A DNA stretch of 63,327 bases, filler included, from Stramenopiles sp. TOSAG23-6 (GCA_900128565.1; 9 parts of 9 records of this genome joined end to end with filler, not necessarily neighbours in it); one strand, 5' to 3'. Positions 21,954-57,924 are shown, numbered from the whole stretch's first letter. Program-made: numbers and translations. Notes: generated by a model not told the origin, from the sequence alone.

Positions 21954-24900
21954 TTAATCGTCTTCAGAGTAATACTCATCATCATTCTCATCACCGTCAT
22001 CATTGGCATCATCTAACTCTTCATCGGTCTTAAAGTCCACAGGCCGATCATAAGTGCTTATTTGATTCGCTGCATTATAAAAAAATCGGTTTCCATCATC
22101 GTCTAGAAATGCTTCCCATATACTGTGAAAAAATATTTGATTTTTTTTTTTTTTTTTTTAAATTTGTTAGGTACAGATTTTCGTACGAAAAAAAAATTGA
22201 AAAAAAATCATAGAAACATTTTGTATACAATTTCGTATACAATTCAATGATGAAAACATACAATGATTTTCTCTTTTCGTGACAAAGCCTGATGGTCTTT
22301 CGTATGTCGAATCACCCGTATTGATATTATAAAAATAATCAACACCATCTTCATCTTTATATTTTTCGAAATTGTTTGGATCGACACTAGTAGTAGGGTT
22401 AGGGTTATTTAGAGAGTCATTTGTATTATTATTTTCTCTTTTTTTCTTTTCTTCATTTGCTCTTGTTGTATCATAACCAACTGGGCGTTCATATTTACTT
22501 TCTCCTGAGATAATATTATAGTAATATGGTATGTTATCATCACCATCATTGTATTTTTCCCAATCTTTGATATTTTGCTCATTCATTTTTTCATCAGTGT
22601 TGGTGTTAATGTCCCTTGGAGTCCGAAAGTGTTTTGGTCTAGTATATGTACTTTCTTCTGTAACATTATTCCAATAATACACTGTTTCCGTATCATCCAA
22701 ATATTTCTCCCATTCCTCAGTTTTGTCCCCTTGAGTTCCAAAGTCTTCATTCTTCTCATTATCTTTTTCATTGTCTTCTTCAGAGTATGACTCGTACGAA
22801 TATTCCTCGTCTAATCTTGGTGTTTTATACTCTTTTGGTCGTTTAAAAGTACTTACTTTTGTAGTTTTATGGTGATAAAATTGTCTTTTACTTAAATCAT
22901 CATAGTACTTTACCCACATCTTATCAACAGATACTATGGAGCCACCTCCATCATCGGAAGAAGACGTGTCATCATTCTGTAACTTTCTCGGAGTTACAAA
23001 ACCGTGAGGTCTATTAAAAGTGCTCTGTTTTGTCACCTGATTAAAATAAAAAACTTTCCCCGTCTCTTCATCAAAGTATTTCTTCCAATCCGATTCGTCC
23101 ATACGGGGTGTATGGAAAAATGGAGGGCGAACATATGTAGATTGTTGTGTCTCTTTTGAATAGTAAAAGTCTCGTTTTACTTCATCATCCCAATACTTTT
23201 CCCATGTTTGAACATCTGTTTGACGCGGTGTTTCATATCCTATAGGTCGATCATAGGTGACTTCTCCTGTATCACGTCGATAATAGTAATATCTACCAGT
23301 TGAATCATCGAGTCGTTTGCCCCAACCATCTTCTGTCAATTCCTCGTCGGACTCAGGTTCGTCAGGTACCCTCATTCCCCAACCATGGAATTCATCCTGA
23401 TTTATCTCTGAAGGCCAAACAGCAGGGAACTCTCCATCACCATAATCAACACGTTTTCCCCAATAGTCATACAAAGCTCTAAATGTGTGAGTCCTTCGTT
23501 TACCCCCAAAGTGAATTTGCATGTAGCATGACGTACAATACATTTCTTCACATGTTTTACATTCCATATGTGCATGAAATCGCTCACAATTATCACAAGT
23601 GGGTTTTGGTAGACGTTCCAACATTGCTTGTGGCATACGCCAACGTATTTCGCCAGTACCTTTGTGATAAAAAAAATGCTTTTGTTCATCTTGATCAAAC
23701 AATGTTTTCCAGTGATCTCCAGCTTGAATCTTTACCTGTTTTGCAACGTTTCGTCCACGATTTCCTCTATAACCAGCTTGAACCATCATTGCTGCCCAGT
23801 TTAACAATGCCTCCTGTGCCATACCGGCTCGTTTCTTCTTTGATAACAACAATTTCATCACTGCTCTTGCCATTCGACCTCTCCAATTTCGTTGAACTCT
23901 CATTGCCATTTTTGTTTTTAATTTCCTCTCAGCTTCCCTTGCTCGCGCCAATACATACGCAGCAAAGCGTCCTTGTCGACGTCTCCATGCACCTTGTACA
24001 ACTAAAGCACCAGCTTCCATTGCTTTTAAAAGTTTTGCTGCTCGTAAAATTTCAAGAATATTTTTTGAGGCTCTAGCCCTCCATAGCTTTTGTAAATATT
24101 TTGCTGCCTTATGTTGCTGTGCTATAAGTAATATTCTCTGTAAATGTCGCACTCTACCCAATCGACCTCTATATACCCTTTGAAGATATGCAGCTGCTAT
24201 TTCTCGTCGTACGTCCTCTTCGAGCAATAATTTTCTTTTATTCATGGCAAGTGTTCTTGCACGTCTTCCTCTCATCATCCTCTGTAAATCAGATGCTGCC
24301 TTGATCTTTTCTAGACGTAATGCCTCTTGTGCAAGTTTAAATAACTCAAAATTAGCACGAGCTTCACGACCTCTCCAGATACGCTGCACCCTTTTTGCCG
24401 CTTCATGGGCTTTTCGTATGTTATCTCTTTGTTTTATTTTCATTAGCATAAATAAATTTTTTGCTACTTTTCCACGGTATCTTTTTTGTACCATAATTGC
24501 GTATTTTAAAATATCAGTATCTTTTTTATCTTTTTTCTGTTTTGCTAGCAATCTTCGTGCGCGACGCATTCGGTATGCACACTGTAACATCCGTGCAGCA
24601 TCAGCATCCCGTTTAGCCATCAATTTCTTTATAATAAAAAAGCGCTTTGCTTGTCTTGTTCGATAAACAGCTTGAAATCGTGTGACAACCCAATTCATCA
24701 AGTGTAATTCTCTTTTTTTTGCTAATTCTTCTCTGGCTTTTTTAGCGCGATAAATACCTTGCATTTTAACAGCAGCAATCCAACACACACCATATTCTTC
24801 AATAAATCGACGATCTGCCGCACGATCTTGTGGTACAAGACCAAAGAATTCATCACTATTTTTAATTGTTACGTATGACCAAGATTCTTGTAATCCTGAT

Positions 24901-25890: not shown

Positions 25891-26399
25891 ATGTATTTTT
25901 GGAAAAATATTTCAAAAAAAATGTAAAAAAAAATTGTTAGGTACAAAATTTTTATAAAAAACCAAAAAAAAAAAACGATTTTTTTTTTTTTTGGTTTAAA
26001 AAAAAAAAAAAAAAAAAAAATTTTTTTTTTTTTTTAAAAAATAAAATTTTTTTTTAAAAATAAAAAAAAAAAAAAAAAAAATCGAAATGGGTAANNNNNN
26101 NNNNNNNNNNNNNNNNNNNNNNNNNNNNNNNNNNNNNNTTAATTAATTAANNNNNNNNNNNNNNNNNNNNNNNNNNNNNNNNNNNNNNNNNNNNGTTTCC
26201 AATTTCATTGTTAGACCTGTATGAAATATTGATTGGTTCGTAAGACGGACTCAAGTCAATGCGGAAATTTTCGATTTTGTGGCCTGACTCGACCGTTGAC
26301 ATTTTTAATTTTAACGTAACTGTTGCTACAGTTTGTTTGATAACTACTTAAGCTGCTTACTACTTGGGAGTATCCTGTGCTTCACGCGACCACATCGCC

Positions 26400-29300
26400 A
26401 TGTGGTATGATATGGGTATGTATATACTTGTTATTATTCTACATCTTACTCATATTTCTCAATCTGGACTTTCCCAGAACAGACGTGAGGAGTTAGACTT
26501 ACAAGGCCAATTAGTAGTTATGGGTGTAGAGAATGGACACACTTACGCGAAAGAAGCCGTATTTGCAGTTGCTGTAGGCCCAAAATTTGATAGGAAAACA
26601 TCGCGTCTATTATTAAGGCTTAATGGTGCTGTGATTTCTAGTGATAAAGAACATACCGTAAGTACACCAGGTTTGCACGAACTTGAAGTTGGTTTCCTTT
26701 ATTTTCAGACATTAGAACCATCAGCTCCACAGTCCTTGGCTCAGCGAATACACTTTGTTGTCGAGTCTTCAGAAAGATCTGGTATGGAGTGGGGACTGCC
26801 ACTATCATTACCTCCGACTTTATCTGATGTACCTATATCAAATATACCATGGGATGATGTATTGCTGCATGTTATTTCGCCTTCTCTGATGCCTCAGGTT
26901 ACTGTACGAACATCTACGAAAGGTAGACCACGAGCATTTGGAAATTTGCCCTTCACAGTCCAAATGATATCTCGACAAAGTGGATTTGCCATTCGACACA
27001 CCGTTGAAGCTTATGCTTCTTTACGATGTTTAAATTGTGACAAGTCGTCAACTTCTAGTACCCTTTTGGCAAAGCTACCCTTTCTGATGATTCGAGGTCA
27101 TGGCGTTGGAGTGGTTAGTTTTTCAGACGATAGTTTAGATGAAAAAGAGCAATTAAGTGAATATATCATTCGCCAGTATGTTCTTACAGTTCATGTAGGA
27201 TATTCATCGTCAAATCCACACTATATAGATTTTTCTGTCAGTCCTCAAGAGTATCAAATAGTACCCTCAATTATATCAAAAGATTTAATCTATGAGGCAG
27301 GATCTGCATTATATATGCCGCGAGGTTCTATTGTGCTTCAAAGTGGGTCTTTAACTATAAAAGGCCCATCTGTGGTTATGATGGGTGCTGGTGCGAAATT
27401 GGTATGTTCGGGTAAGATTTCAATCGATGGATCTGTAAATAATAAATCTGTCGTCTTTATTACAACAACGACAAAAACGTCTTTTTGGTCAGGAATTCGG
27501 GCTCAAGGGGCTGCAGCAGAGCTTACAATTAAAGGTGCAATGATACTACGTGGCGGTGGCATGATTGATGATCCTCCTCCACGTGCTATACTACATTTGA
27601 CCCCTGGTTCAACAACGTATATTCAGAACAGTGTCTTTGCTGCTGCCAGCAAAGGATCTCTGCTAGTAGCTGCTTCAGATTCTTCATTAAAAATAGATGG
27701 CATGGTGTCACACGGTTTTCTATCCGCATTGCGTCTCCATAAATGTAATATTGAAATAAATAGTGGTGTATTCATAGGTTTTGTTTTAAATACTGCCAAC
27801 GATGATGTAGCACAGGCTAAGGAAGAATTGCAAAATAAAGCAGCTGAAGATGCAGAAAACAATGCTACGAGAACAAGCAACCCAATACCTATTAACTTGC
27901 CAAAGAAAGCTCCTTTACCTGAGTTTGTTACCTTGCCTTTTACAGAGAGAAACTTGCTTTCTTTACAGGATGGGTTTTCTGGTGGAGATTGGGATAATCA
28001 TTTAGGATGGAAGAGTACTGGTGCCAGTATTGAACAACTACAGTGGCATGCATGGATGAAAGGAAATCAAGGTCGTTTACGATCCAATTTGCAAGATGGG
28101 GTGACAGAAGCATTTAATAACGAAAGGCTGTTTCGAAAACGTCAAGGGATAAAACGAATAAATGCACATGATACAATGATTTCAAAGAAGGGTCCTCGAG
28201 TAATTGCAGGTGTTGGAGAAAGTAGAAAGAAAACGAAAATGAATAAAAGGAAAGCACGTTTTTCTGAATATTTACAAGAGCATCTTGAGGAAAATATTAT
28301 ACATATTAATAGTGGGAATACTAAAATATCCAATACTCTAATATTTGGTTCAGTTGGAGATTGTCTTGACTTGGAAGGGAAAGGTGGTACAGTTACTATT
28401 ACTCAATCGTGGTTTGAAGGTTGCTCACATGAAGGAATCGCTGTATCTGTACGGGAACCTGAAGAATACAGTATGTACATTCCTGAAGTAAGACGGAATT
28501 CACAAAAACAAGAAAATCTTCCTAACAATTTAAAAAAAAAAATATTGAAAAAAGTTGTCGTGGATAACACTGTACTCGCCGGATGTCAACAAGGAGTGGA
28601 AGTTGGTTCATCTCGTTCTGATGAAGTTTTAGTCGATATGGAACACATATTATTACTGCAAAATGGTATTGGTTTGCGCCTAGGTGATAATTATCAATCT
28701 AACCAAGGCTATATGATGGCAACAGGATTGCTACGATGTCGCCGGTGTGCTTTCATTAGAAACAATAAAGACGTTTGGCATGCTCAGAAAATAGAAGGCT
28801 CTAAATTTTTATCAGGTACAGAAATTTCACCAGCTGCAAAGATTTGGGTTCACGATTCTTTGGTCGAAAGTATGGATGCGGCAATACTCGATCCTTCGAA
28901 TGTATTTCCGAGATATAGACCAAAGGATTCACTTGCCGTGAAGATCGCAATGATGCACAAAACAGAAAGAATTCTTCGCGCTGAGCAAGGTAACACTGGA
29001 GAAGGTGATATAGCGTCAGATGAAATAAATGAAGAAAAAGAGAATTTCATGAGGATACTTGATGAATCTGTTCTTTCGAACTTGACTGGCTCATCTGTTG
29101 CTGGAATTGTACCTATAGTTGACACACAAACAAATATATCATTATCATTGACAGGCACTCTTGCATCCGCTGTGACGGCTGCAGCTGCCGCGCAATTAAA
29201 TGCTTTTTTTGCATTGCTACCAACAAGTAGTTGTGGTCATGGTATATATGGGTTATCTGCTTCAACTTCACCATTTTCAAAAGAAGAGATTGATTCATTT

Positions 29301-32300
29301 CTGAAATTTCCTTACGGCTTACATAAGATATATAAAAGATTAGGTTATGTTGATCCGGAGCTTACCTCAAAAGTTTTAGAGTCTGTTAGAGTTCCTGAGA
29401 TTAATTTGAATTCTGCCTCAATTATTATGCCCAAAAAAACAGCTACTTTGAACTTTCGTTCAGATGAACCTGCTAGATTTTCATTGCTTCGTTTTTGCCA
29501 AGAGCAAAATTGTTCTTCCGAGGAGTATAAACAGATTCTAGGAGCGCTTGATAATCTAGAAAAAAAAACAAAACATGAATCCAAGCAAAATCAGCCTGGA
29601 TTAACTTGTAAAGTTGGCGACGACGTAATTGCCGAGTTTGAAGGGGATGGTAAAATGTATAAAGCAAAAATTGAGCATATTACAATAGATGAAAACATCT
29701 TAGAAAATTCTATCATAACTATTCAATGGGATGATGGCGACCCATCACATAGAAATTTGCCTTTTACCAAAGTATTCAAGGATGGTGGTGTATGTAATTT
29801 CCCAAAGGACAAACAGAATGGGGTTGGAGAAGACAAAACAGCTAACGCTGAAGACATTTGGAAGCATAGCGCGCGAGACGTAGATTTTTGGATGAATCAA
29901 TTCAACAAGATTGTGGAAAAAAATCCTCGTTGGAAACGTCTCAATATGGATCATAACAATGTTTCTGTTTGTGCGAATGGTGGTCGGACAAGTTATCTAA
30001 GACTGAAACCCTCTAATGCTATTATCGGGAGTTTAATTAATGGATTTCAAAGAGATCAAAACATGAACAATTTTTCATATTTTGATATTGCCTGGGGTAG
30101 TCATAAATATGATGACAAAAGCGAAGAAAAATGGGAAAACATATTTATTGATAAATGGAAAGCGATTCACGAAAACAAGGATAGTGAAGAAGATAAAACG
30201 TGTGATGAAAGCGGTGAATGCCAATCAGAAAATGTAGATACAAAAGCATCTGAACATGTAGGAAATATATTAGATGGAAGAGAACATTTGTTTGTTGTCG
30301 TTCTTTGGGCCAATGTAAAACCTCGAGTGCGTGGCGATACTTTACATTTTTTGTGTGAAGAAAGACTCAGTCAAATGCGTGTAGTAAATATTTATCAGTT
30401 TTCTCCAAATGCGCCTTTATTTAGTCGTAAGGATACACACGAAGAGCGGTGGTTTGATAAGGAATGGTACAATGAATTCTGGGCTATCGGAAAAGACAGC
30501 AAACGTATTTATGATATATCAGCCAAATTAGGTACCGGGCCATTTCAAGTTATATTGTTGCGTGGAACTACTGTTGCTTTTGAGCGAGCAAAAACAACAA
30601 TAAATATGTGGATTCAAGACGACAAGGAGAAAGATGCAAATATTGAAATACTTGGTAGAGTGGATGATATTCAAGTCGCATATTTCGCTCCAAAAACTAG
30701 CGGTCTTGTTGATGATTCTTGGTACCGTCCACCGCCAGGCAAGCCAACAGATGATTTACAAATACTATTGGGTATATCACCACAAGCTACCCAAATGTTT
30801 TTTGGTAACAGTAAGTATTTTCTGAATAGGCATACTAAATCTAAAGACAATTTAAAGAAGGGGAAACCAGTATTTGGAGATTGGTTAGCTTCCCAATGGT
30901 TTGGAGATTATTCCTCAGCGAGCCAAAATAAAGTCAATTACGGCGATAGAAGCCAATCATTTGATCCAAGCAAAGTTGAAGATTTTAACGAGATGGTAAA
31001 TGGAGTTCACACACTACATTCAGATCTTTCACGTGGAGTTTCTCATGATTTTTTTCGAAATGACGGTAAAAATCGATTAAGTGGAACGTTGCGAAGTACT
31101 CTGCTTCAAAGGAGGAAAGAAAAATATTCAACTCCATCGAAGTCCAGCCAAAGTAACTTAATTGAAGAAATGAATTCCACTCTGTCCCATGCGAAAATAC
31201 TAGCGCTTGCAAATCGACCCATGTCTCCTGAAAGTCAATTTCATTTTGGAAAAACAGCTGAATGTCCAAAGTCTACAGACGTTTACTGGAACTTTCAAAT
31301 GGGGCTCGGGGCATTACCTTCAAATACATTCGAAGTACTCGCATCAGTTGTTGGTGCCTTTGCTTTAAACAAGACTTTCGAGACATCTGATAATCAAGAT
31401 ATATGTAACAAAGATGGAGATGATACTCATACAAACTTTACTGATGGTCTAGGTGTACTATTGAATTCATGTGAAGCAATCAAAAAAATAATTGAATTTC
31501 CCAGTCTAAATAATGCCCGTGAAAATATATATAGAGCTGCACTTGTAGCACGTCATCGACCTCGTTTATTAGAAATTTTACTACGTCCAGACTTGTCAAT
31601 TGATTCATCATCTTTGCAATGGATTAAATTTGTAGTACCTGCGTATCGGATAGGAAGTCTCCAAATTTCAAATTCTGATGCCTCTACGGGACTGTGGGCA
31701 GATGAGCTTGCTAATACTTCAATAGCAAATGTTGCAGATATAATTCGTCGAATACGAACTTTTGTTCGTCGCAGAAAATGGAATAAATGGTTCCAGGGAT
31801 ATAAAGTGAATCTTCAGTCATATGGCATGGGTATTACTATTGATGAGATCAAATATGAATTGATTGCTCAAGGTTTGTTGATCACTGATAATGTAAATGG
31901 GGAAGAGGGAAGTGATGATGATTCAAAATGTGCATTGAGCTTTGCAATTAATCTTTGGCATGATATGTGTAAACATTGGAAAACTTTAAAATCGCATGGA
32001 TTCAGTCCTATATCGGACCTTCCAACTCTTCGATCATCAACCAATCCTCTAATTAAAGCTGCCGTATCTTTCTTTTCTAATATTTCAGCCACCAATGTTG
32101 GTATTGGGGTGTCAAACGATTGGTATTCTGATATTGAAATGATGGATGGTGGAGCACACGCACTTGCATTATATCTATTTTCGATTGACCATTTTCCTGC
32201 AGTTCGCGACTCAATTCGATCACAAATATCAAATCATATACGCGAAGCCAAAGAGGCTCACTTAAAATATTCGTCTAAGCGGAAATTAAGCATGAAAAAA

Positions 32301-33404
32301 TTCATCCATGAAAGTAAGAAAAGAGAAACTGAAGAAAACCAAAATAAACACAATATCCCAATTATTCACCCGACTACATTTTTGGCTAATAATATGGAAG
32401 CTGGTTGGGGTGGCATTCATACTACTGAAGAAGACGTGTTATTATTACGAATGAAATTAACGAGGTTTTATGCACAATGGGCCCCAGGAAAACTTACCAA
32501 ACAATCTAGTTCAAATTATCACGATATGAAAGACAAAAATATGTATGACCCAGAAAATAATATTTGGAATAAAAATTTACCGATGGAAGCGTTGTCATGG
32601 AAGTGGTTGGGTCGAGAACGAACACTTTGGTTTGCACTTTTGTATAAGTATCAGGAAGCAGCTTGGCAGATTTCTCGTGGGAATATTAAAGCACCGGATG
32701 CGATCGCTGCATCTGCAGCAGTTGAAGTAGTCGAAAAGCTTGAGATGGAAGCAATGGCATATAATGCATCAGGATTATTGGATGAACCACTTGATATATT
32801 TTTTGATGAAAATGATTCTGTAAATGATCAAAGCATTCCCCAAACAAAACACAATGAAACAAAAAAAGAAGAACTTCGAATTGATACAAATGATAACAAA
32901 CCATATACAATGAACAGTTTTTTTGAGCATTATGGTAGTCTAGACGAGTGGAATGCGGCACGCAGTTTAACAGCAGAAGAAGAGAAACATATAGATGAAA
33001 TCAGTAAAATAAAAACAAGCTTGTTAGAGAAAGATATAAACACAAAAATGAATACCTCAAAGGGGGAATCAAATGATAGAAAACCAAAACAAAAAAAATT
33101 TGCTAAAAAGAGAAAACGAAAAGGAAAACCATTGAAACTGAAAACAAAGTTGAAACTGTCCTCTAAAATGAAAGGAATGCAAAATAAAATCAAAAATTTT
33201 AACCATCAGCACACAAATAAAACTTTGCAAGAAATGCTTGCACAACAATCCCATGGCCAGAGACAAATTGGTCCAATGGCTCCTCAATTCCGAAGCGCTG
33301 TTGAAGTTAACACTGAGAGAAGTTCAAATGAAATCCGAAGGTTCAAGTGGGATCTCCCACCTTTTCTTCATTTTCGTTTATTTGTCGGATATTCTTCAAA
33401 GTAA
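26400..33404 (+). CDS. Very large intronless protein: probable signal peptide, right-handed beta-helix-like region, Tudor-like domain
   Basis: ~2330-aa ORF with a hydrophobic N-terminus, GDCLDLEG/EGIAVS/QGVEVG/GIGLRLGD beta-helix-like turns, and KVGDDVIAEFEGDGKMYKAKI...IQWDDGD. Confidence 0.7.
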   Translation: MWYDMGMYILVIILHLTHISQSGLSQNRREELDLQGQLVVMGVENGHTYAKEAVFAVAVGPKFDRKTSRLLLRLNGAVISSDKEHTVSTPGLHELEVGFLYFQTLEPSAPQSLAQRIHFVVESSERSGMEWGLPLSLPPTLSDVPISNIPWDDVLLHVISPSLMPQVTVRTSTKGRPRAFGNLPFTVQMISRQSGFAIRHTVEAYASLRCLNCDKSSTSSTLLAKLPFLMIRGHGVGVVSFSDDSLDEKEQLSEYIIRQYVLTVHVGYSSSNPHYIDFSVSPQEYQIVPSIISKDLIYEAGSALYMPRGSIVLQSGSLTIKGPSVVMMGAGAKLVCSGKISIDGSVNNKSVVFITTTTKTSFWSGIRAQGAAAELTIKGAMILRGGGMIDDPPPRAILHLTPGSTTYIQNSVFAAASKGSLLVAASDSSLKIDGMVSHGFLSALRLHKCNIEINSGVFIGFVLNTANDDVAQAKEELQNKAAEDAENNATRTSNPIPINLPKKAPLPEFVTLPFTERNLLSLQDGFSGGDWDNHLGWKSTGASIEQLQWHAWMKGNQGRLRSNLQDGVTEAFNNERLFRKRQGIKRINAHDTMISKKGPRVIAGVGESRKKTKMNKRKARFSEYLQEHLEENIIHINSGNTKISNTLIFGSVGDCLDLEGKGGTVTITQSWFEGCSHEGIAVSVREPEEYSMYIPEVRRNSQKQENLPNNLKKKILKKVVVDNTVLAGCQQGVEVGSSRSDEVLVDMEHILLLQNGIGLRLGDNYQSNQGYMMATGLLRCRRCAFIRNNKDVWHAQKIEGSKFLSGTEISPAAKIWVHDSLVESMDAAILDPSNVFPRYRPKDSLAVKIAMMHKTERILRAEQGNTGEGDIASDEINEEKENFMRILDESVLSNLTGSSVAGIVPIVDTQTNISLSLTGTLASAVTAAAAAQLNAFFALLPTSSCGHGIYGLSASTSPFSKEEIDSFLKFPYGLHKIYKRLGYVDPELTSKVLESVRVPEINLNSASIIMPKKTATLNFRSDEPARFSLLRFCQEQNCSSEEYKQILGALDNLEKKTKHESKQNQPGLTCKVGDDVIAEFEGDGKMYKAKIEHITIDENILENSIITIQWDDGDPSHRNLPFTKVFKDGGVCNFPKDKQNGVGEDKTANAEDIWKHSARDVDFWMNQFNKIVEKNPRWKRLNMDHNNVSVCANGGRTSYLRLKPSNAIIGSLINGFQRDQNMNNFSYFDIAWGSHKYDDKSEEKWENIFIDKWKAIHENKDSEEDKTCDESGECQSENVDTKASEHVGNILDGREHLFVVVLWANVKPRVRGDTLHFLCEERLSQMRVVNIYQFSPNAPLFSRKDTHEERWFDKEWYNEFWAIGKDSKRIYDISAKLGTGPFQVILLRGTTVAFERAKTTINMWIQDDKEKDANIEILGRVDDIQVAYFAPKTSGLVDDSWYRPPPGKPTDDLQILLGISPQATQMFFGNSKYFLNRHTKSKDNLKKGKPVFGDWLASQWFGDYSSASQNKVNYGDRSQSFDPSKVEDFNEMVNGVHTLHSDLSRGVSHDFFRNDGKNRLSGTLRSTLLQRRKEKYSTPSKSSQSNLIEEMNSTLSHAKILALANRPMSPESQFHFGKTAECPKSTDVYWNFQMGLGALPSNTFEVLASVVGAFALNKTFETSDNQDICNKDGDDTHTNFTDGLGVLLNSCEAIKKIIEFPSLNNARENIYRAALVARHRPRLLEILLRPDLSIDSSSLQWIKFVVPAYRIGSLQISNSDASTGLWADELANTSIANVADIIRRIRTFVRRRKWNKWFQGYKVNLQSYGMGITIDEIKYELIAQGLLITDNVNGEEGSDDDSKCALSFAINLWHDMCKHWKTLKSHGFSPISDLPTLRSSTNPLIKAAVSFFSNISATNVGIGVSNDWYSDIEMMDGGAHALALYLFSIDHFPAVRDSIRSQISNHIREAKEAHLKYSSKRKLSMKKFIHESKKRETEENQNKHNIPIIHPTTFLANNMEAGWGGIHTTEEDVLLLRMKLTRFYAQWAPGKLTKQSSSNYHDMKDKNMYDPENNIWNKNLPMEALSWKWLGRERTLWFALLYKYQEAAWQISRGNIKAPDAIAASAAVEVVEKLEMEAMAYNASGLLDEPLDIFFDENDSVNDQSIPQTKHNETKKEELRIDTNDNKPYTMNSFFEHYGSLDEWNAARSLTAEEEKHIDEISKIKTSLLEKDINTKMNTSKGESNDRKPKQKKFAKKRKRKGKPLKLKTKLKLSSKMKGMQNKIKNFNHQHTNKTLQEMLAQQSHGQRQIGPMAPQFRSAVEVNTERSSNEIRRFKWDLPPFLHFRLFVGYSSK

Positions 33405-33427
33405 TAAAGAAATAATTTTAAAATTTA

Positions 33428-34763
33428 TTAATGATTTTTATTATTCACTGGGAGTCTTAAACTCAAATTTGATTGTGCGGTATGAAAATCCGAGTCGAGC
33501 ATTAGTTTTCGAAATTCTTCAGGTCCGATTTGTCCATCACCAGATATATCAGCTTCTGCAATAACACGTGCCACATTTGGATCATCTGGTCCATATGTAT
33601 TTTGGAAAAGTATTTCAAAAAAAAAACTAAAATTTGTTAGGTACTATATTTCGTACGAAAAAAAATTCGATTTTTTTGTTAAAAAAAAAAATAAAACATA
33701 CATTGATCCCCCAATAATGTAGCCAAATTATCTTTTGTAATGAAACCATTGCTATCTATATCCATGCGTTTAAACGTGCAATCGATGATTTCCTCTGTCA
33801 TTTCTCGTTGTTCAATACATGTATTTTGGAAAAATATTTCAAAAAAAATCGTTACGTACAAAATTTCGTACGAAAAATAAATTTGAAATTGAAAAAAAGA
33901 AACATACATGCAGCTAGGAATTCAGAGAACTGTACCACATTAGTATTATCTTGATCAATAGCGCAAAATATTTGTGAAATATTCAATTGTTTATCTTTAG
34001 GGTTAAGGTTATTATTTGGGCAAGTGTCTTCCATAACTTTCTGAAGTTCTGATTCACTAATAGTTCCAGTGTTATTTGTATCTATTCGTCGAAATTCCTT
34101 GGATAAATCTTCAAGTTGTGCTCTATCATAGAAATGTGCCATCACTCGAAGGGCGACTCGTTTCAATTTTCTGTAGGACTGAAATTTCGAAAGTGTTTCT
34201 ACAATTTTGATTTCACACTTATTTTCATTTGGCTCTTCGATATGCTTTTTGGAAAAATATTTGAAAAAAAAAAACTTAAATTTGTTAGGTACAAAATTCC
34301 GTACGAAAAAAAAATCGATTTTTTTGTTAAAAAAAAAATAAAACATACATCTTCTGGGAGTACAACGTTGTTCCTAAGCCATTGATGTTTCATTGCCTGT
34401 GCTGATGTAAGTCTTTCATCGGGATTTCGTTCTAGGAGCGATTGCACAAAACTTTTTGCATTCTTTGATATATTTTTCCATTTTTTAGATGTAAATAATT
34501 TACTATTATCCTCCAAAATTGCTTTTTCAAGTCGTATATTATAGGCTTCTGTTTTTTCCTCTGATGTTCTCTTCTCATGTTTAAATTTATACCATTTTTT
34601 CTTGGCAAGACCACTGAATGGTGGAGTGCCAGATAAAAGGAGATAAATATTATCAAAAAATATTTGAAAACTTTTGAAATTAGTTAGGTGTATTACTACA
34701 TTTCAATTAAATATGAAAAAAAAATAAAAATGGATAACGTACAAGTAACGACACCAAGTGACC
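33428..34763 (-). CDS. CDPK: Calcium-dependent protein kinase, C-terminal part (kinase subdomains IX-XI + 4 EF hands); introns 34645-34742, 34242-34348, 33819-33907, 33595-33701
   Basis: Spliced WSLGVVT-YLLLSGTPPF, ERLTSAQAMKHQWL, KLKRVALRVMA junction domain, and DTNNTG, DQDNTN, DIDSNG, DISGDG EF hands. Confidence 0.92.
34645..34742 (-). mobile_element. Family intron, GT...TT
   Basis: Only this 98-nt excision gives the conserved kinase motif GVVTYLLLSGTPPF; the exon ends TT and the intron ends TT. Confidence 0.85.
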
Positions 34764-35049
34764 ACGTATTTTGGAAAAATATTTGAAAAAAAAATCGTTA
34801 GGTACAAAATTTCGNNNNNNNNNNNNNNNNNNNNNNNNNNNNNNNNNNNNNNNNNNNNTTAATTAATTAANNNNNNNNNNNNNNNNNNNNNNNNNNNNNN
34901 NNNNNNNNNNNNNNTTTTTATTTATTTTGGAAAAATTTTTAAAAATTTTTTTTTTTGGTTAGTAAAAAAAAAAAAAAAAATTGTTAGGTACAAAATTTCG
35001 TACGAAAAAAAAAAAGTAGATAAATTTTTTTTAAAAAAATAAAAGATAC

Positions 35050-35712
35050 ATGAGCATCATCAATGTTTGTATTTTGTGAATTTAATTGTGCAGTAAAGGC
35101 AGAATGGCTACGAGGGGAATTATTTATTTGAATTGCATCATCTTTCAATGTTTCAGTCACATCATTCATTGTCTCAGATGGTTGAATTGTTTTTTTTTTT
35201 TTGGATTGTTTTTTTTTTTTCTCATTTTTACGTTTTTTTTCTGCTTTTTTTGGTGACTCTGGCGATAGACGAAAAAGAGAATTCGATGCAGTGATGTATT
35301 TATAACGAAAGTAAAATGGACCTTCGCGTAATGTTCCAGTAATTCGTGTCTGAAATACAAAGGCTCGACCTTGAATACAAAGCAGACTGTTGTCATCGCA
35401 TTCATCAGATATATAAATTTCATTGACTTTTCTATCTTTTGGATCACGACAAGCCACGTCGTTATTACGATAACACCATTGTAGACGCACACTCATTTCA
35501 CTTTTCCGATGATTCTCATTCGTATCTTGCCAGAATGAGAGACAACGAGCAACATAAGGAGCTACTTTCTTAGAAGGGGGTTGAAGTAGAACATAATCTC
35601 CCACACGCGTCAATCCGGAGTATTCATCAACAAAAGCAGCGTAATATGCACGCTTTGAACGATTCGATTTGTTTTGTATCCTTACAGGATCACCAAACCA
35701 ACGTATTGACAT
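35050..35712 (-). CDS. BAH-domain chromatin protein, exon 1 (3' truncated)
   Basis: RVGDYVLL...PYVARC..FWQ...VRLQWCYR...NEIYISDECD.N.L.CIQG. Confidence 0.85.
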
Positions 35713-36058
35713 GCTAAATAACTATACGTTGGTATACATGTTCTCATACAATACGATACTAAGAGTAACGAATTTACTTGTCTATATAATTGTGCTTCTT
35801 GTTGTTGAACAAGAAAAAAAATGATCGTGTGAGTTTGATTTGATGACTTGATTTGACTTCTTCTTGATGTTCCTCTTTTTTTCCTCGCGCGATTTTTCTT
35901 TCGAAAAAAAATGAAGAATTGAATTAGGTACAAAAAATAGGTACGGAATCATGCGGAAGGTTTCCTTATTTTGGTACGAAATTTTGTACCTAAATTTGAA
36001 TTCTGAATAACTTGAAATAAATTGTGCATTATATTGTATTGTATTGTATTGTATTATA

Positions 36059-50050: not shown

Positions 50051-52113
50051 TTAGTTACCAAGTAACCCCGTTTCTGTTATGAAATATTTCATTGAATTTG
50101 TCGGAGGTATTAAAAAATCTCCGTGTGAGTAGTGGTACACCATATCACACTTATGGGTTAATCGTTCGCATTCAAATGAACATTCATTATTAGGGTTAGG
50201 GTTATTAGAATCATCATTAGGGTTAGGGTTATGAGAATCATGTTTGATTTTCATTGCATTTCGTTTTCGCTTCTTACGGCGCATATTTGGTATATAGTTA
50301 CCAAAATAGGGAGAAAAATGTTTTAATTTTTCATGTTGTACAGTAGGAGGTACAACTGTTTGTAATAAATTTGAAATTGGAGAAAATATCAATTTTTTCT
50401 GAAATCCTACATTTTTTTTGGACAAAATTTCGTGTTTTGTATTTTTTGTATTTTTTACATTTTTTGTATTTTCATCAAAAAAAAAAAGATTTTTTTTCTT
50501 CCAATTTTGTACAATATTGTGCACAATGAGTACATATATTTTGCATCTCATCTGATATAATTTTTGATATTTTTGGATTTTCATGATTATTTGATACATT
50601 TTGTAATTTAGTGATGAAAATATCAGCTCCAAATCCAAGAAAATTTAATTTTTTTTTTTCGTGTTTTTCGTGTTTTTCGTGTTTTTCTTCTCTGTTTCGT
50701 GTTTTTATAATTGTATTCAATGTATTGTTAGTATACCATGTATTTAATCGTCTATACTCTACAAACATATCTTTACTCTTGTTTGTATTCCTTACTTTTT
50801 GTTTTCCATTTTTATTTTCAAAATTTTGTTTCATTGCAAAAATATCGAAACATTGACACGTGTCACTTTGTGTATCACAAATAAAATTAGTATTGTCCTG
50901 ATTATTGTCTAAAATTTTTTTTTTTTTTTTTTTTGAACATTTAATTTTTTTTTTCTCGTTTTTTTCATTCATTTTTTCATCTTTTCGTTTTCGACGTAAT
51001 CGATTGTTTTCTAATCTTTGAAGTTGTTTTATATGTTTTTCGTGTTGATCAGATACTTTTTTAGCTTCAACGCAATTTGGACAAAACCAAAAATTGTGTA
51101 AAAATATTTTAATTTTTTTTTTTTTTTTTGGTTAGGTACAAATATTTCATATATATTTTTTTTTTGGAAGGGGGTTAGGGTTAGGGTTAGGGTTAGGTAC
51201 AGTATTCAGTATGTTAATGTAAACGTACAATGTATTCGCATTTTTGGTGTTATTTTAGTAATACATTGAGGTAAGCAAAAAGAGTGATATACATGAATTG
51301 TGAAAAAATATTTTAAAAAAATTCGTTAGGTACAAAATTTCGTACGAAAAATAAATTCGATTTTTTTTTTTTTTTTTTCGGTAAAATAAAAAAAAAATAA
51401 AACATACATGATTACAATTAGTACAAGTCAATAGTTTTGAAGTGTGATTTTCAGTCGTAGATCCACAACCCTATATTGCAAAAAATATTAAATTGTTTTT
51501 TTGTTAGGTACAAAATTTCGTATGAAAAAAAAAAAAAAAATTGAATAAAAAAAAATTTCAAAAGCAAATGTAAAAAATATTTTTAAAAAAATATTTGTTT
51601 TGTTTTCTATGAAAATTTCGTATGAAAACCAAAAAAAAAAAATTGTAGAAAAAATTGAATAATGAAAATGTACATAACAACAGCCTGAATGGATTTTTTT
51701 TTGTTTTTCATTTTTTTCATTTTTTTGAGAATGTGCCATGTTTCTCTCTATATAATCATTATCATTTGTAATACACTCTTGATTTTGTAAAGATTTTAGT
51801 GATGTTTTTTTCAATGTATTTTGAAAAATATTTAAAAAAAAAAACTAAATTTGTTAGGTACAAAATTTCGTACGAAAAATTAAAAAAAAAAAAAAAAACA
51901 CATACATGAATCTTTTTCTTGTTTTTGTTGTTTTTGTTGTTTTTCATATTGTTGATATTCTTGTTGTTGTTGATATTGTTGTTGTAATAGCCTATCTCTC
52001 CACGAATTCCATTGTTTTAAACAATCATGTGCCGCAGATACCAACATTTTTTCAAATGCTGTATTAATACCAGATTTTTCAAATGGAGGAAATACAAACG
52101 ATTTCGTGTTTTT
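50051..52113 (-). CDS. PHD-finger protein (5' truncated); introns 51814-51905, 51471-51673, 51293-51407, 51089-51228; probable homopolymer frameshift near 50480
   Basis: Spliced CY|GC...LLTCTNCNH|VYHSFC...H|WFCPNC gives a complete C4HC3 PHD. Confidence 0.8.
51089..51228 (-). mobile_element. Family intron, GT...TT, with internal (CCCTAA)n and a duplicated branch motif
   Basis: T|GG restores the PHD WFCPNC motif. Confidence 0.85.
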
Positions 52114-52390
52114 ATGTATTTTGGAAAAATATTTCAAAATTTTTTTTTTTGGTTAGTAAAAAAAAAAAAAAAATTGTTAGGTACAAAATTTCGTACGAAA
52201 AAAAAAAAGAAGATAAATTTTTTTTAAAAAAATAAAANNNNNNNNNNNNNNNNNNNNNNNNNNNNNNNNNNNNNNNNNNNNTTAATTAATTAANNNNNNN
52301 NNNNNNNNNNNNNNNNNNNNNNNNNNNNNNNNNNNNNAATTTCGTACGAAAAAAAAATCGATTTTTTTGTTAAAAAAAAATAAAACATAC

Positions 52391-53230
52391 ATATGAAGAG
52401 TCGCCATTTGAGAAAAATGTATATGACCGATTTGTTAAGCCTCCTAATGTGGTTAAAAGATAGGCAAGTGGGAACCAGAATAAACGGGCATAAGTCTTTT
52501 TTCGTCTTTGTCGCAGTGCAGTATTTGTCACTCCCGTGTTATATGAGACATGTATGAAAATTCTAATATAGAAAACTACTACAACTATTGACACTATCAT
52601 AATTGGAAAGTACAGCATTAACATTTGTGCCAGGGATTCAGATGACTTCACCCAACACCATGATCCAGTTAAGCCATAAAGGTCAAACTGATAACCAAGA
52701 CTGGCAATGATGGTAGGGACAATAATACAAAAAGCATTAAAACCAACCATTAAGTGAGAGCTACTGCACTTCATCACCACCAATCTGTATAATGTTACTG
52801 CAATACAAGCAACATAACAAATTATTGAAAGACAACTAGCTTGCGTTATAAACCCTGAAATACGGCATCCGTTGTGATCAGCGTTCATCCACTTTGGTCG
52901 CCCGTCTGCAATAATTGTTGTCAAGGCACTGAAAAACTCGTTAATACTCATAACAAAGTTAACTAATATCAAACAAAATACAAGCTGAGTCTCATCATAC
53001 CCATCACGCCAACTAGAGCCACCTACACGAACACGGTGTAGCTGTGCAGGCGCTAAAGCCTTTCGTTCTCTGTGACGAAGTAATAAAAACGAGAAAATGA
53101 CAAAGACACATCCCATAACACTAAAACCAGCTGTGAAGAAAGTTATCATAGCAAGGGTATTTCGCTGTTCTGAAGTTAAACCATCAGGAGCGAGGATGCC
53201 TAGAGCATCTGCATTAGACGGAACGGTCAT
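52391..53230 (-). CDS. cAMP-receptor/GCR1-like 7-TM GPCR, exon 1 (3' truncated)
   Basis: FSVMGCVFVI, GCRISGFITQ..LS, YGLTGSWCWV, RLFWFPL. Confidence 0.82.
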
Positions 53231-53526
53231 GCGACACAGATCCAATGATTCCAATCTAATTTGAAAACCTGTGTATCCACATCCAATGATTTCTACTGAT
53301 GTCAGTTTTTTGAGTTCCTGAGTCGATGAAATCTGCTATCCCTACCAATAGACTATAGTAATACCCAGATTTCGTGCCCTAACTGTCGCACTGACTATAT
53401 CGCGAGCGGTCTCAATTTATTTCAGTAACTGTTACTAATAATTGCTTTAGGAGTACGTATAGTATCATCCACACTGTCACAATTTTCAATAATATTGAGA
53501 AATGAGGAAACATATTGGAATTACAC

Positions 53527-56101
53527 ATGAAGCATAAAAGAAGGAACTCAACCCATAAAAGGCTGGAATATTCTATGCGTAACCAACGACGCTCAAGTAA
53601 AGGCTTTGGGTACGTAAATAAGAATGAACTAGTTGTAGATAATGAAACTCAAATATCCATGCTGAGAAATGAGCAGCGTTTGTACAAACAACGTAAAGAC
53701 GTAGCAAAACGCAAAGCGTTACAAAAAGAACGGACCCGCTTGCGTGCCCAGAATGCATTTAAAAATGCTACAAAATCGACGCTATGGCAAAGAATTTTCG
53801 GTCGTGGTGCTTCGGCTCGTCAAAAGCAAAAGATGAATAGTAAACGATATACTAAAACTTGGAGAGAGCAATATATCCAACCCTTTTTCAAGGATTTAAA
53901 GATTTCACAAGAGCACGAAAAGGAGATATTTCAAGACGTGCAATGCTGTGTTGGAACAGATCTTGATTGGAAGCATGACCAAGTCAGGAAAATCTTTGAT
54001 GATACTCTTTATTCTTTACCTCAATGGATGCGAAGATATGAATCTGGTAAGAATACAGCAAGTCTTGCAATATCAAAGGAAATATCCGATGTTATTAGTG
54101 CAAATGGAAAACATGTTTCCATGGAATCAAAGTTGCCTGGACTTTCGACGTATAATTTTCAGGAGTCTTTTTTCCTTCTTCTGAGAGAATCTGATGCACT
54201 TTCTGACAATTGTTTGAGTGAGTACAGTGACGACGAAACTGATTCTATTAATCATCAAGATCATCAAGAAAAATCAAAACATAAAACAAATCATTTAACA
54301 TCACCAATTTTAGGGAAAGCATTGAGTGGTTGTATCGTTGTGTCCCATTTACTTCCGAGAGAAACTCGTGAAGAAAGGCCTTCTTGGAGTGCCCCCGATG
54401 TACCAACGTCTCTAAAAGGCAAACTTGAATATGTACATTTTCATCATTTTTTTTGAATTTCGATTTTTTTTCGTACTAAATTTTGTACCTAACGATTGTT
54501 TTTACGAAAAATAAAATATTTTTGTACAATGCATGATAGCAATTTGTTCATGGAAGTGTGGGAAGTAGTCTGGTGGAGTAGATCAAATAAGTTTAGTAGA
54601 GATATTTCTATACCTAATATGGGAACGTGGGAAAATGTTTTGTTATGGTATATCGAAGCAGCCGGGAAAAGACGTGTACGTTTGCAATTTCAAAATTTTA
54701 ATTTATTTTTTCGTACGAAAGTTTGTACCTAATGATTTTTTTTCGAAATATTTTTCACAATACGTGGTGTTGCTGCTGTATTAACACTTGCTGGTATACA
54801 CGATATACCATGGTGGTTACAACACCGACCTGAACCAGATTGTTGTTTATATAATTCTGTTCATTTCAAAGAACCATTAGATGTACATCATAAAGAATCA
54901 GTCGATTCACAGTATAAAGTTCCATTAGATGTACATCATAAAGAATCATTAGATATACATCATCATAAAGAGCATCCTTTTATAAGCTTATGTGATGGTG
55001 CAGCTGAAATTGAAGCTGTCTCTCAATTTCGAGTACGACCACTAGCTATTGGTGGTTTACAACAGTTTTATCAAGATTCAGAAAAACCTCGTCGAACCGG
55101 CCAGAGTGTTATTCCACATGACGATGTTATTTCAATAGCGGCTACAGCCATGCGTGACTACTCGAATTATAAAGAAAAGAAACGGAAAAGAACCTCAAAT
55201 GTAAATATTGATTTGAAAAAAATATTAAAAGGTAAAGTTAGAGTTGACAAGAAGTACCGTATTTCTCCAATTGATGTTGCCCATGTATGTTTTCATCATT
55301 TTTTTCAATTTGTTTTCGTCGTAAATTTTGTACCTAACGACTTTTTAAAACCAAACAAAAATATTTTTCACAGTATATGTTTGGATTCTTTTGTATACAA
55401 TACCTGCAACTGCATCTGGTTCTAGCATTGGTATTCAGAACAAAATCAAAATAAAAACGAAAGAATCAAAAGACTCAAAATCTTCTTTTAGTAAAGAAAT
55501 CCAAAACAAATTTAGAAAAAGATCTAAGAATAGTTATCAATCGTATTTTTTAGAAAAAGCTGCAGCTCATTTAAGTTTGTCAGAGTTACATAATAATATT
55601 TTGAATACTAATAAAAAAAACACCAAAGATCTAGAACAAAAAAACCGAGGTTATTCAAGAAAAATCAATAGCAACGAGTACAAGGATATCTTTAATAGCT
55701 TATCAAGTTTGAAATCTCAGAAAAAGAGTGAAATTAGTAATCTTAAAAAATCTCGAAACAATTCGACCACAATGTTGAACACAAGTTGGATAAGAGCGTC
55801 GAAACGCGAAGTTGAAATAAAACCTTTGACTTCTCAAAAATCCCCCAAAAGACAAAAACAAAGACGTGTATTATCAGTACCACGTGTGTTGTCTGAATGT
55901 ATGCCGTCTGTTTCCACAAATCTAGTATCTGTTTCACAAGGCGGAGGTGTTGATTGTTTTGTGAGTAGATCTAAAAATGATAGAAAACATTTAAAACCAC
56001 TGGAAAGTTGGAAGGATGGTATTTCACAAATGGTTTCAGAAAGAATTGGAAGAGCAGATAGATCAGCTGATATTAGAGAAGACACATATAGTACTGTATA
56101 A
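53527..56101 (+). CDS. Hypothetical protein; introns 54433-54534 (AT), 54676-54765 (GT), 55285-55378 (AT)
   Basis: Four exons join into one open frame only with these junctions. Confidence 0.65.
54676..54765 (+). mobile_element. Family intron flanked by a GT duplication (GT...GT)
   Basis: AGAC-GT|GTACGT...CAATAC-GT|GGTGTT; excision restores the frame (KRR|GVAAVL). Confidence 0.75.
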
Positions 56102-56244: not shown

Positions 56245-57924
56245 TTATAAAACCTTTTTGTTAAAGCCTTGTAAAATCGAACCTAGGAATCGATCAATAA
56301 TACCAATTACAGTAAACACACCACCAATGATTGCACAGAAATTAGTAATAAAATGATATATTGGTTTTTTCGTGAACGAGGTGACTACAGTCATTGGAGA
56401 TAAGTCATATTGAAACATAATAGAAGGTGGCGTTCCATCATCTTCTTTGTGTTCACTCGAAAAGGCAGCATATATTGTGAAAAAAAATTGAAAAAAAAAT
56501 CATTAGGTACAAAATTTCGTATGAAAAAACATTTAGGTAAACAATTCATGAGGAAAACATACATAACTATAGTAATGCATTTTGCGATCATCTTCTTCAG
56601 TAGAACTATCAAAATGAAAAGATTTACTCACCACCTTTAAATAATGCACAAACGTATAACTATTTCGTGTTGTGTGAAATTCTCGATCATCAAGTTTATC
56701 ACTGCGTAAATCATTTTTCATTACTGACGGAAGTTGACGATACTTTTTTTTATATATATTGTGAAACAATATTTCAAAAAAAAAAAAATTAGGTACAAAT
56801 TTTTTTTTTTTTCGTAAAAAAAAAAAAAATCAAATTCGTGATGAAAACGTATACCTAGCATTGATTGGATCTCCAAAATTCAACTTGTGTACAGTATGTG
56901 AAGAATTTACCATTCCATTTTCTGTATCATATCGAGGAGATACAAGATTCATATGAAAGTTACCTGGTACACGTTTCACCAAGAGCCTGCCAGAAACATT
57001 GCAACCTTCATGGCCGACTACATCAAGTTCACTGTGTCCATTTGCCACATCTTCTTCATGCAACTGACGCTTTTTCAAATCTGCATGATCTTTAAATTCT
57101 TTCCTTGAGAGAGTTTCATATGCTTTGGTAATGAGACCAGTGACAGTTCGTTCACCATGATATGCTTCGAGAGGAGACAAACCACCACCTGTGAAAATGT
57201 AAATGGTAGGATATCCACGAATATAATGTTTCTGACAAAGTTGTTTTTCTTCAACACAGTTCACCTTCGCAAATGTGATTGGAGCAATGTGTTCATGTTT
57301 ACCCATAAGCTTAGCGGCAGCTTTCTCCCAAACAGGCTCGAGACGTTGGCACCATATACACCAAGGAGCATAGAAATTCATCATGATAACCTGATCGCTA
57401 TTATCCCTGACATAATCTTCGAAAGTTTCCCCAGTAACTGGATCACTATGTACCTCACCCGAGGCATCTTCTTGCAATATTTGCTCCAACGCTGCGAGTT
57501 CTTTTTGGGCAGTTTCATCGTGTTCTTCGGGCTCGATAGAACTACTCTTTATTTTTCCCAAGTGCCTTCCTCTGTGATCAACACGAACCTTTTTAATATT
57601 TTGGTGAATATCGTGCTTTCGTTCACCTGTAACATCCGAAATATCAACACTGGCAAATTCGCAAGGCAAGTCATGTACAGTAATATTAAAGTTGATCGAT
57701 AACATACCACTATGTGAGTCAGAAGAAACCTCGCCCCGTTCGAGAACAATGTCAGTTGTCGTGGTAACTTTCAAAAAAGACTGAAGCTCAAGACCGAAGA
57801 GTAAAGTCATTATTAAAATACCAAAGAAGGATAGACAGGCTCCAGAATAGGTAGACACATACAAGTCATCAGGAACTTTTTTGTATAAATCCCATCTACG
57901 AATAAAATTTCCAAGGAACCCCAT
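56245..57924 (-). CDS. PDI-C-type protein: Erv41/Erv46 (ERGIC) with embedded thioredoxin domain; introns ~56754-56852 and 56470-56562
   Basis: DLYKKVP, INFNIT..LPC...VD..D..G, FYAPWCIWC, EGC.V.G.L.VKRVPGNFH, FQYDLSPM, CAIIGGVFTV. Confidence 0.92.

Follow-up and report, generated by a model that had tools for sequence, protein, structure and literature searches.

A probable introner-like family of GT-AT introns in a MAST-3-type stramenopile

How is the 3' end of an intron chosen when it carries no AG, and when a CAG lies only a few nucleotides (nt) upstream of it? The question is raised by a stretch of DNA from Stramenopiles sp. TOSAG23-6 (GCA_900128565.1), 63,327 nt long with filler included and made of nine parts of nine records of that genome joined end to end (hereafter the window), in which one intron sequence recurs on both strands. 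The original prediction, made from the sequence, held that four of these introns skip available CAG acceptors, and that their 3' splice sites are measured from an internal box or fixed by pairing of the intron ends. The account that we consider probable is that the copies belong to an introner-like family of a MAST-3-type stramenopile, bounded by a 2-nt AT direct repeat and spliced as GT...AT. Positions are counted from the first letter of the window, a slash marks a junction, and introns discussed singly are named by the coordinate of their 5' end.

The family, its boundaries and its internal signals

The family as a whole, and the copy that stands closest to its consensus, are located as follows.

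Positions 4213 to 62291, both strands: the intron family overall, with 42 exact GTACCTAAC boxes in addition to GTACCTAAT variants, and with 30 copies curated.
Positions 20704 to 20806, minus strand: a near-consensus copy, AT/GTATGTTTT(T)n CAAATTCGAG (T)n CGTACGAAATTTTGTACCTAAC ... GAAATATTTTTCCAAAATACAT/

The 42 exact boxes compare with 0.12 expected from shuffles, and the copy number of the family in the window is at least 45. The repeat unit can be written as AT-GTATGTTTT...T-runs and palindromic boxes...CGTACGAAATTTTGTACCTAAC...T-run...AAATATTTTTCCAAAATAC-AT or, with the putative branch box picked out, as AT-GTATGTTTT...TACCTAAC...CCAAAATAC-AT, a single AT being retained in the mRNA. The host genes are unrelated (WW, MSP, RCC1, CFAP47-like, GPCR-like and ERGIC-thioredoxin). 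In 47 of 51 cases the box shares the strand of the local long open reading frame (ORF). The best pairs of copies are 90–93% identical and the median pairwise identity is 72%, a spread suggestive of an old family to which younger members have been added. GT-AG introns of the ordinary type occur beside it, as at 42184 (...CAAACAG/).

Both ends could be placed in 30 copies, which form the curated set, and a conservation profile was drawn from 28. The majority open with GTATGTTTT directly after an exon ending in AT and, aligned on the GTACCTAAC box, the majority terminate ...GAAATATTTTTCCAAAATACAT, with AG absent. In the profile the AT preceding the GT is conserved (frequency 0.89 for A and 0.86 for T) and position -3 is not; at the far end conservation stops sharply after the terminal AT (0.96 for each base), the first bases of the downstream exon being unconserved. 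The position of this terminal AT in the conserved 3' block is called the register below, and offsets are counted from that end. The 5' terminus is GT in 29 of the 30 curated copies, in most of them as GTATGT or GTACGT, and the 3' terminus is AT in 26, AG in three (at the same register) and TT in one. As read off the last four bases of the curated copies, the last triplet among the AT enders is CAT in 21 and TAT in five, and the last two exon bases are AT in 22 copies out of 30. The putative branch motif GTACCTAA, followed by C or T, is present in every curated copy at 32–62 nt before the junction, and T-runs follow it. An AG intervenes between box and junction in 14 of the 30: nine are 10–19 nt from the branch A, a position that ordinary spliceosomes too tend to skip, and five are distal, at offsets -3, -5, -5, -5 and -8.

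Junctions seen in RNA, homology and reading frame

At several copies, junctions without AG are demonstrated by RNA, by homology and by reading frame. The introns that carry this evidence, together with an AG-ending sibling, are these.

Positions 19485 to 19609, minus strand: family intron with an RNA-supported non-AG end (metatranscriptome contig), GTATGTTTT...CCACAATACAT/
Positions 19825 to 19941, minus strand: GT-AG family copy, GTATGT...ATATAG, ending ...GTACAATATAG/, in which AG takes the register held elsewhere by AT (RNA).
Positions 56470 to 56562, minus strand: family intron in the ERGIC_N-thioredoxin-ERV gene, GTATGTTTTCC...TTTTCACAATATAT/, with no AG in the last ~40 nt.
Positions 56756 to 56854, minus strand: a further family intron of that gene, again with no AG in the last ~40 nt (homology).

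Seven marine metatranscriptome runs from three studies contain parts of the window, and the assembled contigs of four of them were compared with positions 17466–26094, the range to which all RNA evidence given here belongs; introns 7503, 42397 and 55285 lie outside it. RNA of the organism is present in the runs, as judged from long pieces free of differences such as X1 record 2 (181 nt) and X7 record 28 (251 nt). X3 record 18 contains 19415–19490 and 19618–19824, with two letters between the pieces and one mismatch, which is the predicted join of exon ...AGATAAAT to TGCAAG..., six of the eight letters being aligned to the look-alike intron end ATACAT. An in-frame TTTTTTTTTTAG lying 30 nt upstream of the 19609–19485 end is left unused in this record. 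In the AG-ending sibling, position 19824 is joined straight to 19942 both in X3 record 18 and in X7 record 24, which come from two studies, and here a slide of the junction is impossible.

For the ERGIC-thioredoxin gene there are two transcript-sized relatives, P0002 and P0003, 61% and 57% identical respectively and found on contigs of about 1.7 kb. When intron 56562–56470 is cut as GT...ATATAT/ the protein reads ...HYYSY/AAFSS..., without gaps against either relative, and gaps arise otherwise. Intron 56854 gives a gapless alignment to P0002 and P0003 only with an AT end, either as GT56854...AT56756 or as AT56852...AT56754, which yield the identical protein; with this junction the protein regains 16 residues, which align gaplessly with both relatives and are missing from P0001, the closest public coding sequence.

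In the frame test, the long open frames either side of each copy were compared and the outcome was set against a one-third expectation. Of 28 copies, 20 have their longest downstream ORF at the register (binomial p = 4e-5); the figure is 19 of 27 once the poorly registered copy 36382 is left out. Among the misses, 7549, whose last exon is short, was resolved afterwards by homology; at 19881 the scorer misplaced the register, the actual end being the AG confirmed by RNA; 54485 and 62047 fall in frame as GT(+4)...register, where GT(+4) is the second GT of the donor GTAYGT; 43697 has Ns upstream; and 8355, 9311 and 51139 make up the remainder.

It had been claimed that scanning for the first AG would not give the junctions of the family. 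This is upheld by the lack of a junction AG in 26 of 30 copies, by the TTTTTTTTTTAG left unused in RNA, and by the three introns that align gaplessly with transcript-derived relatives only if cut at AT (56562, 56854 and, as described below, 7503). The further claim that a CAG is passed over in all four of the introns singled out stands at 7503, through its relative P0121, and loses its force at 22261, 55285 and 42397, where GT(+4) and the CAG make a pair that keeps the frame just as well.

The four CAG-bearing introns and the marking of the 3' end

The four introns in question are the following.

Positions 22118 to 22261, minus strand: family intron in the WW-repeat gene, GTATGTTTTCATCAT...GTACCTAAC...TTTTTTCACAGTATAT/, with CAG at 22125–22123 (offset -5).
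Positions 55285 to 55378, plus strand: family intron, GTATGTTTTCATCAT...CACAGTATAT/, with CAG at 55371–55373 (offset -5).
Positions 42397 to 42607, plus strand: family copy with a mutated donor (ATACGT), ATACGTTTTT...CACAGTACAT/, with CAG at 42600–42602 (offset -5).
Positions 7503 to 7598, plus strand: family intron in the MSP-domain gene, GTACGTTTTCATCAT...TTTTTTCAGCAATACAT/, with CAG at 7588–7590 (offset -8).

All four lie where they had been predicted, three ending in ...TTCACAGTA(C/T)AT and 7503–7598 in ...TTTTTTCAGCAATACAT. The textbook pyrimidine-CAG described 5–8 nt upstream of each end is indeed found at -5, -5, -5 and -8, except that the context of the CAG in 42397 is A-rich. Translation of each pairing also bears out the predicted frameshift: in none of the four does the frame survive when the family donor is spliced to the CAG. 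In 22261 this pairing gives ...RENH/LYGKHF and a stop, five codons in which the WW Trp is lost, and the register junction gives 53 open codons with Trp encoded by T/GG; the exon downstream fits the Pfam WW profile from position 6 on (E = 1.8e-4), so that the Trp of position 5 comes from the junction codon. In 55285 the register opens 240 codons and the CAG brings a stop after 26; in 42397 the stop comes after five codons; and in 7503 KLRVRF is lost. The original prediction had noted that a GT at 7501 paired with the CAG would rescue the frame of 7503, which is correct. It had overlooked GT(+4): when this second GT of GTAYGT is combined with the CAG, the frame is preserved in each of the four, and both the WW Trp of 22261 and the KLRVRF of 7503 are retained. 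With the CAG the offsets sum to 9 or 12, and frame logic thus cannot tell this pairing from the register.

The most serious rival to a GT...AT junction is accordingly that the CAG copies use their CAG together with GT(+4), as GTTTTC or GTTTTT, and are GT-AG introns 9 or 12 nt shorter that add three or four residues to the protein; we regard this as somewhat unlikely. In its favour, the offsets of -5, -5, -5 and -8 are all congruent with the pairing. In 42397 the family donor is mutated to ATACGT, so that GT 42401 is the sole GT there, and the canonical alternative 42401–42602 (GTTTTT...CACAG) and the register form, AT42397...AT42607, reach the identical 26-codon C-terminal frame of a small protein in which no Pfam family was found. 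For copy 62287 the frame is kept by just two pairings, GTTTTA...register and one whose donor lies 2 nt upstream, and weak donors may therefore work. Against it, the strong GTATGT donor is intact just upstream of the weak GT in both 22261 and 55285. The residues before other WW Trps are polar, which favours ...ENH/W over ...ENHCII-W and so fits the register at 22261 slightly better, although weakly. Three of the offsets, moreover, may be kin, belonging to one subfamily (GTAYGTTTTCATCAT... CACAGTAYAT), and hence would not be independent.

The decision is clearest at 7503. P0121 is an MSP-domain relative of its host gene, 255 residues long, 48% identical overall and found on contigs of at most 1155 nt. 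The register junction gives ...RLIKAV/PRDEQ..., which aligns with ...RLIKSVPKELQ... of P0121 without a gap and with equal length to the stop (C-termini ...WIQKAQRLIKSVPKELQKKKFRFSKLKVKFCI in P0121 and ...WIQKAQRLIKAV/PRDEQKQTFKFSKLRVRFTI in the window), against which the CAG forms add two or four residues, with QYI or YQYI inserted at the junction. The CAG in question is well placed, following a T-tract at 35 nt from the branch A, and to judge from this comparison it appears to be bypassed in favour of an end 8 nt downstream. At 22261 and 55285, where the GTATGT donor is intact, bypass of the CAG is likely on indirect grounds. No contig from the four runs bridges 22117/22262; the protein collection gave eight candidate relatives of the WW exon, none of which was scored, and the metagenome contigs 144 pattern matches to the WW gene, none confirmed; and the second exon of the 55285 gene has no match at E <= 0.001 in the representative library. 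The period of the WW repeats was tried as a ruler for the 22261 junction and proved uninformative, the linkers being 12–37 residues long.

The CAG copies form a subfamily with the 5' sequence GTAYGTTTTCATCAT and the 3' sequence CACA(A/G)TAYAT. Their AG-less siblings (54433, 56562, 56854 and 41908) share this terminus, ending ...CA(A/T)T(A/G)(C/T)AT, so that the CAG would seem to have arisen by one A-to-G substitution in an end that was functional before it had any AG.

What, then, marks the 3' end? Measurement from the TACCTAAC box, as had been proposed, is contradicted by a distance to the junction that ranges from 32 to 62 nt (median 41; 30 curated copies). The AAATATTTTT box was found in 24 copies, of which 19 have it 21 nt before the junction and 22 at 20–22 nt; it is part of a contiguous conserved 3' block, so that measuring a distance from it is inseparable from direct recognition of the block, and as a separate ruler it is not supported.

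The other proposal was that pairing of the intron ends sets the junction. In its fullest form, in which the 3' rule of the major spliceosome has shifted so that a terminal AU is preferred over a CAG 5–8 nt upstream and is sited by a helix of exon-AU plus GUAU with AUAC plus AU, leaving a 2-nt stagger, so that an otherwise classical GTATGT/CTAAC intron would have a 3' site guided by structure or by its terminus, we hold the idea to be unlikely. That RNA structure as such sets the 3' site, the exon AU and GUAU pairing with AUAC and AU to give a 2-nt staggered cut, is in our view less probable still. The complementarity is certainly conserved (G1 faces C-3, or forms G:U, in 27 of 28 copies, U2:A-4 in 24, A3:U-5 in 25 and U4:A-6 in 21); it extends to 6 base pairs (bp) with the exon AT included; and the helix appears in four of ten minimum-free-energy folds. 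Related ideas have been put forward for the non-canonical introns of Amoebophrya and Euglena, in the available sections of PMC7789003, PMC12501133 and PMC12621601. The GUAU/AUAC duplex of 4 bp is nevertheless weak (about -2.8 kcal/mol, with 22261 and 55285 at -0.6); none of the three CAG copies folded has it in the minimum-free-energy fold; z-scores of the folds lie between +0.8 and -2.1; and compensatory change is essentially lacking, C at +4 in five copies being matched by a compensating G at -6 in one of them. The same intron-end bases pair with U1 and U6 in splicing, which also counts against a helix of their own, and the terminal repeats of a transposon would predict invariant pairs equally well. 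The 2-nt overhang that formed part of the proposal does exist as sequence geometry, with 6 bp of complementarity including the exon AT and a stagger of 2 nt between the cut sites; it is better taken as a 2-nt direct repeat of AT. This is the geometry expected of terminal inverted repeats with a 2-bp target duplication, and on the sequence the stagger may be read as the footprint of an insertion rather than as a working ruler.

A further rival, very improbable in our estimation, is that the copies are AT-AC introns, cut before the exon-side AT and after ...AAAATAC, with pairing of A(+1) and C(-1). This would give identical mRNA in the 22 of 30 copies that have the exon AT, and the branch box TACCTAAC matches the familiar U12 box TCCTTAAC at six of eight positions. 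Introns 7503, 10999 and 22261, though, are without the exon AT and yet are in frame at the register; P0121 has Val at the 7503 junction, as GT...AT predicts, and not Ile (a weak point); and in the AG-ending copy 19941–19825, where the junction cannot slide, the cut falls at /GTATGT. At the 5' end the motif is GTATGT and not ATATCC, the 32–62 nt from branch to 3' end far exceed the U12 range, and the arithmetic of intron lengths puts the two A-start copies tested, 62291 and 42397, out of frame as AT...AC. Removal at the DNA level, in the manner of the TA-bounded eliminated sequences of ciliates, would account for a 2-nt direct repeat of which one copy is kept and for the short inverted termini, and is scarcely credible in view of the strong 5' splice-site, branch and T-tract signals, the co-orientation of 47 of 51 boxes with genes, the abundance of family sequence in RNA-library contigs (where DNA carry-over is possible), and the AG-ending siblings spliced at the same register.

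The probable account thus remains that of an introner-like family spliced as GT...AT. A strong 5' splice site (GTATGT), the CTAAC branch box and the T-tract would all come with the element, and splicing would take out GT...AT, that is, the element and one flanking copy of AT, by which the reading frame that existed before insertion would be exactly restored. The last intron base would be U, in a few copies G, and would hold a fixed register in the conserved 3' block ...CA.AAUAYAU/, and the 3' splice site would be marked by this terminal block rather than by the first AG after the branch point, so that a CAG arising by point mutation 5–8 nt upstream (A to G in ...CACAAUA...) would be skipped. 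The co-orientation of boxes and genes, together with GTATGT, CTAAC and the T-tract, argues for spliceosomal removal over excision from DNA, and both this and an origin from a transposon with a 2-bp target duplication are suggested by sequence features.

Several points weigh against this account. Where the exon ends in AT, cuts at GT...AT, TG...CA and AT...AC yield the same mRNA, so that the cut sites are not fixed there. The RNA support for an AT end is a single contig of depth 3.4, whose letters were deduced from piece lengths and a mismatch count. GT(+4) with CAG is in frame at 22261, 55285 and 42397, and the frame of copy 62287 suggests that a GTTTTA donor can work. The terminal inverted repeat, GTAT/ATAC, is short, at 4 bp or 6 bp with the exon AT; neither an empty site nor a presence/absence polymorphism nor an autonomous element came to light, the target duplication being a matter of pattern; a family 22-mer was not found in viral, metagenome or prokaryote-genome contigs; and all family counts come from one 63-kb window. 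A Pfam search limited to large ORFs identified no transposase gene in the window, and an Rfam scan of the window returned no match.

Some individual copies deserve mention. Two perfect palindromes are conserved in the element, for example in 20704–20806 (minus): AAATTCGAATTT, and TTTCGTACGAAA directly ahead of the branch box, the latter being the sole recurrent stem in computed folds; they could be transposase-binding sites or hairpin formers. The copy at 34242–34348 (minus) ends ...CCAAAAAGCAT/, with an AG 3 nt ahead of the register and both ends in frame (NAGNAT spacing), and offers a natural case of competition between AG and AT. At 9430–9530 (plus) the branch-box region of one intron is tandemly duplicated over about 74 nt, with GTACCTAAC at 9442 and 9516 and identical flanks. 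Two copies that are 91% identical have 12 upstream exon bases, GCTTGAAGAAAT, in common (20807–20818, minus, and 43633–43644, plus) and unlike downstream exons; the plus-strand copy enters a masked N block, the shared flank may extend further, and either a co-mobilised flank or duplication of a gene fragment is possible. Telomere-type repeats occur within introns beside splice signals, GTACGTTTTCTTTAGGGTTAGGGTTAGGC after the donor at 42184–42215 (plus) and GTACCTAACCCTAACCCTAACCCTAACCCCC joined to the branch box at 51200–51175 (minus). In the X1, X2 and X7 contigs of 17466–26094, family segments have word depths of hundreds to thousands against ~3–8 on adjacent exons, which suggests very high copy number or abundant intron RNA, the depths being sums over all contigs and not a measurement; many of these contigs match two places. 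The longest uninterrupted ORF of the intron-dense window, 2350 codons at 26352–33404 (plus), has no family intron inside it and no Pfam match.

The host, its public gene models and comparison with known systems

The best match of the ERGIC-thioredoxin protein is a EukProt coding sequence with a name beginning GSMAST32, which we take to denote a MAST-3 single-cell assembly; oomycetes come next among the named matches, at ~41%. An atlas comparison gave a loose indication of marine algae. On this evidence the host is probably an uncultured marine stramenopile. A tunicate origin, brought to mind by the Fritillaria introns discussed below, is ruled out by protein content and best matches. P0001, which is this closest public coding sequence from EukProt (56246–57942, minus strand), reads into intron 56562–56470, and forcing the nearest GT...AG pairs (56848–56702 and 56542–56456) reproduces its last 160 residues exactly, including its errors, a hole of 16 residues and seven wrong, intron-encoded residues (VCFPHEF). 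The public model of this or a near-identical genome thus mis-splices the family. P0001 is also without a 12-residue segment, QLHEEDVANGHS, that is present in the window ORF, P0002 and P0003. In the available sections of PMC5778133, gene counts are 2694–3289 in 19–21 Mb for MAST-3 against 4652–8537 in 28–33 Mb for MAST-4. Taken with the errors of P0001, the unusually low number of predicted MAST-3 genes raises the possibility that the gene catalogues of these abundant ocean flagellates, and functional inferences drawn from them, have been systematically damaged.

If the account given here is right, an independent protist lineage joins the very few with a large-scale breach of the 3' AG rule, and a uniform GT-AT pattern beside 5' and branch signals of yeast strength would provide a clean natural system for the study of 3' splice-site specification. 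A transposon with a 2-bp target duplication could turn into an exactly excised intron if the spliceosome accepts a terminal U, and the geometry of insertion would thereby be tied to the evolution of splice sites.

Searches of the literature, supplementary files lying outside their reach, found neither a GT-AT intron family nor non-canonical introns in MAST-3. In two MAST genome papers the main text does not discuss splice sites, the word "intron" appearing twice, in the methods, in the main text of PMC5778133, where "splice" and "canonical" are absent, and not at all in that of PMC8163842. Measured against the major classes, the family has the GT donor and the putative branch and T-tract of U2-type introns and, with AT in 26 of 30 copies, lacks their 3' AG. 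Nor does it resemble U12-type introns, having GTATGTTTT at the 5' end against the usual (A/G)TATCCTT and 32–62 nt from box to junction against the usual 10–20. In AT-AC introns of either U2 or U12 type, a 3' end other than AG is accepted because the first intron base pairs with the last; such a reading is formally possible for the AT-flanked copies, but the 5' motif, the branch distance and the copies not flanked by AT do not fit it. In budding yeast, AGs near the branch point or within structure are skipped, and the 3' site finally chosen is still an AG. The window family is like yeast in its GTATGT and TACTAAC-like signals and in its skipped AGs (nine copies, 10–19 nt past the branch A), and unlike it in that the site used is AU, possibly downstream of a well-placed CAG. 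The nonconventional introns of euglenids and diplonemids, which lack conserved borders and have extensively paired ends, are another type again, the borders of the window family being uniform and its terminal pairing 4 bp and weak.

The repeated non-GT-AG introns of Amoebophrya, in the available sections of PMC7789003, have complementary ends, with inverted repeats of 8–20 nt and direct repeats of 3–5 nt, a hairpin that is proposed to join the exon ends, and inconsistent terminal dinucleotides. The family described here differs in its uniform GT...AT termini, its inverted repeat of only 4–6 bp and its strong classical 5' and branch signals. In the introners of Micromonas, Aureococcus, Symbiodinium, Polarella and others, a repeated element makes introns at unrelated gene positions, the element supplying one splice site and the target duplication the other, and these introns end in AG; one curation of introners accepts both AG and AC as 3' sites (available sections of 10.1101/2020.10.14.339549, PMC12130899 and PMC11282704 for the former, PMC12130899 for the latter). 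Short inverted termini, a short direct repeat over the exon-intron boundary and marine hosts are, as far as those sections go, held in common. The difference is that in the window family the duplicated AT, a duplication deduced from pattern, itself serves as the 3' terminus (GT-AT).

The nearest parallel is provided by the Fritillariidae. In the available sections of PMC13326754, AT is the commonest 3' terminus in Fritillaria pellucida (44%) and F. borealis (34%), the last three intron bases are YAY, which often stands also before the 5' site, a U2-type spliceosome acts on introns thought to be recently gained, and the T-rich tract is kept. The same symmetry of exon end and intron end is seen in the window as ...AT/GT...CAT/, with a YAY end and an AT terminus. 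The main Fritillaria classes, according to the same sections, begin with AG (AG/AC and AG/AT), and the window family begins with GT in 29 of 30 copies; the one host is a chordate and the other a stramenopile protist, in whose window a single sequence family with a conserved branch box dominates.

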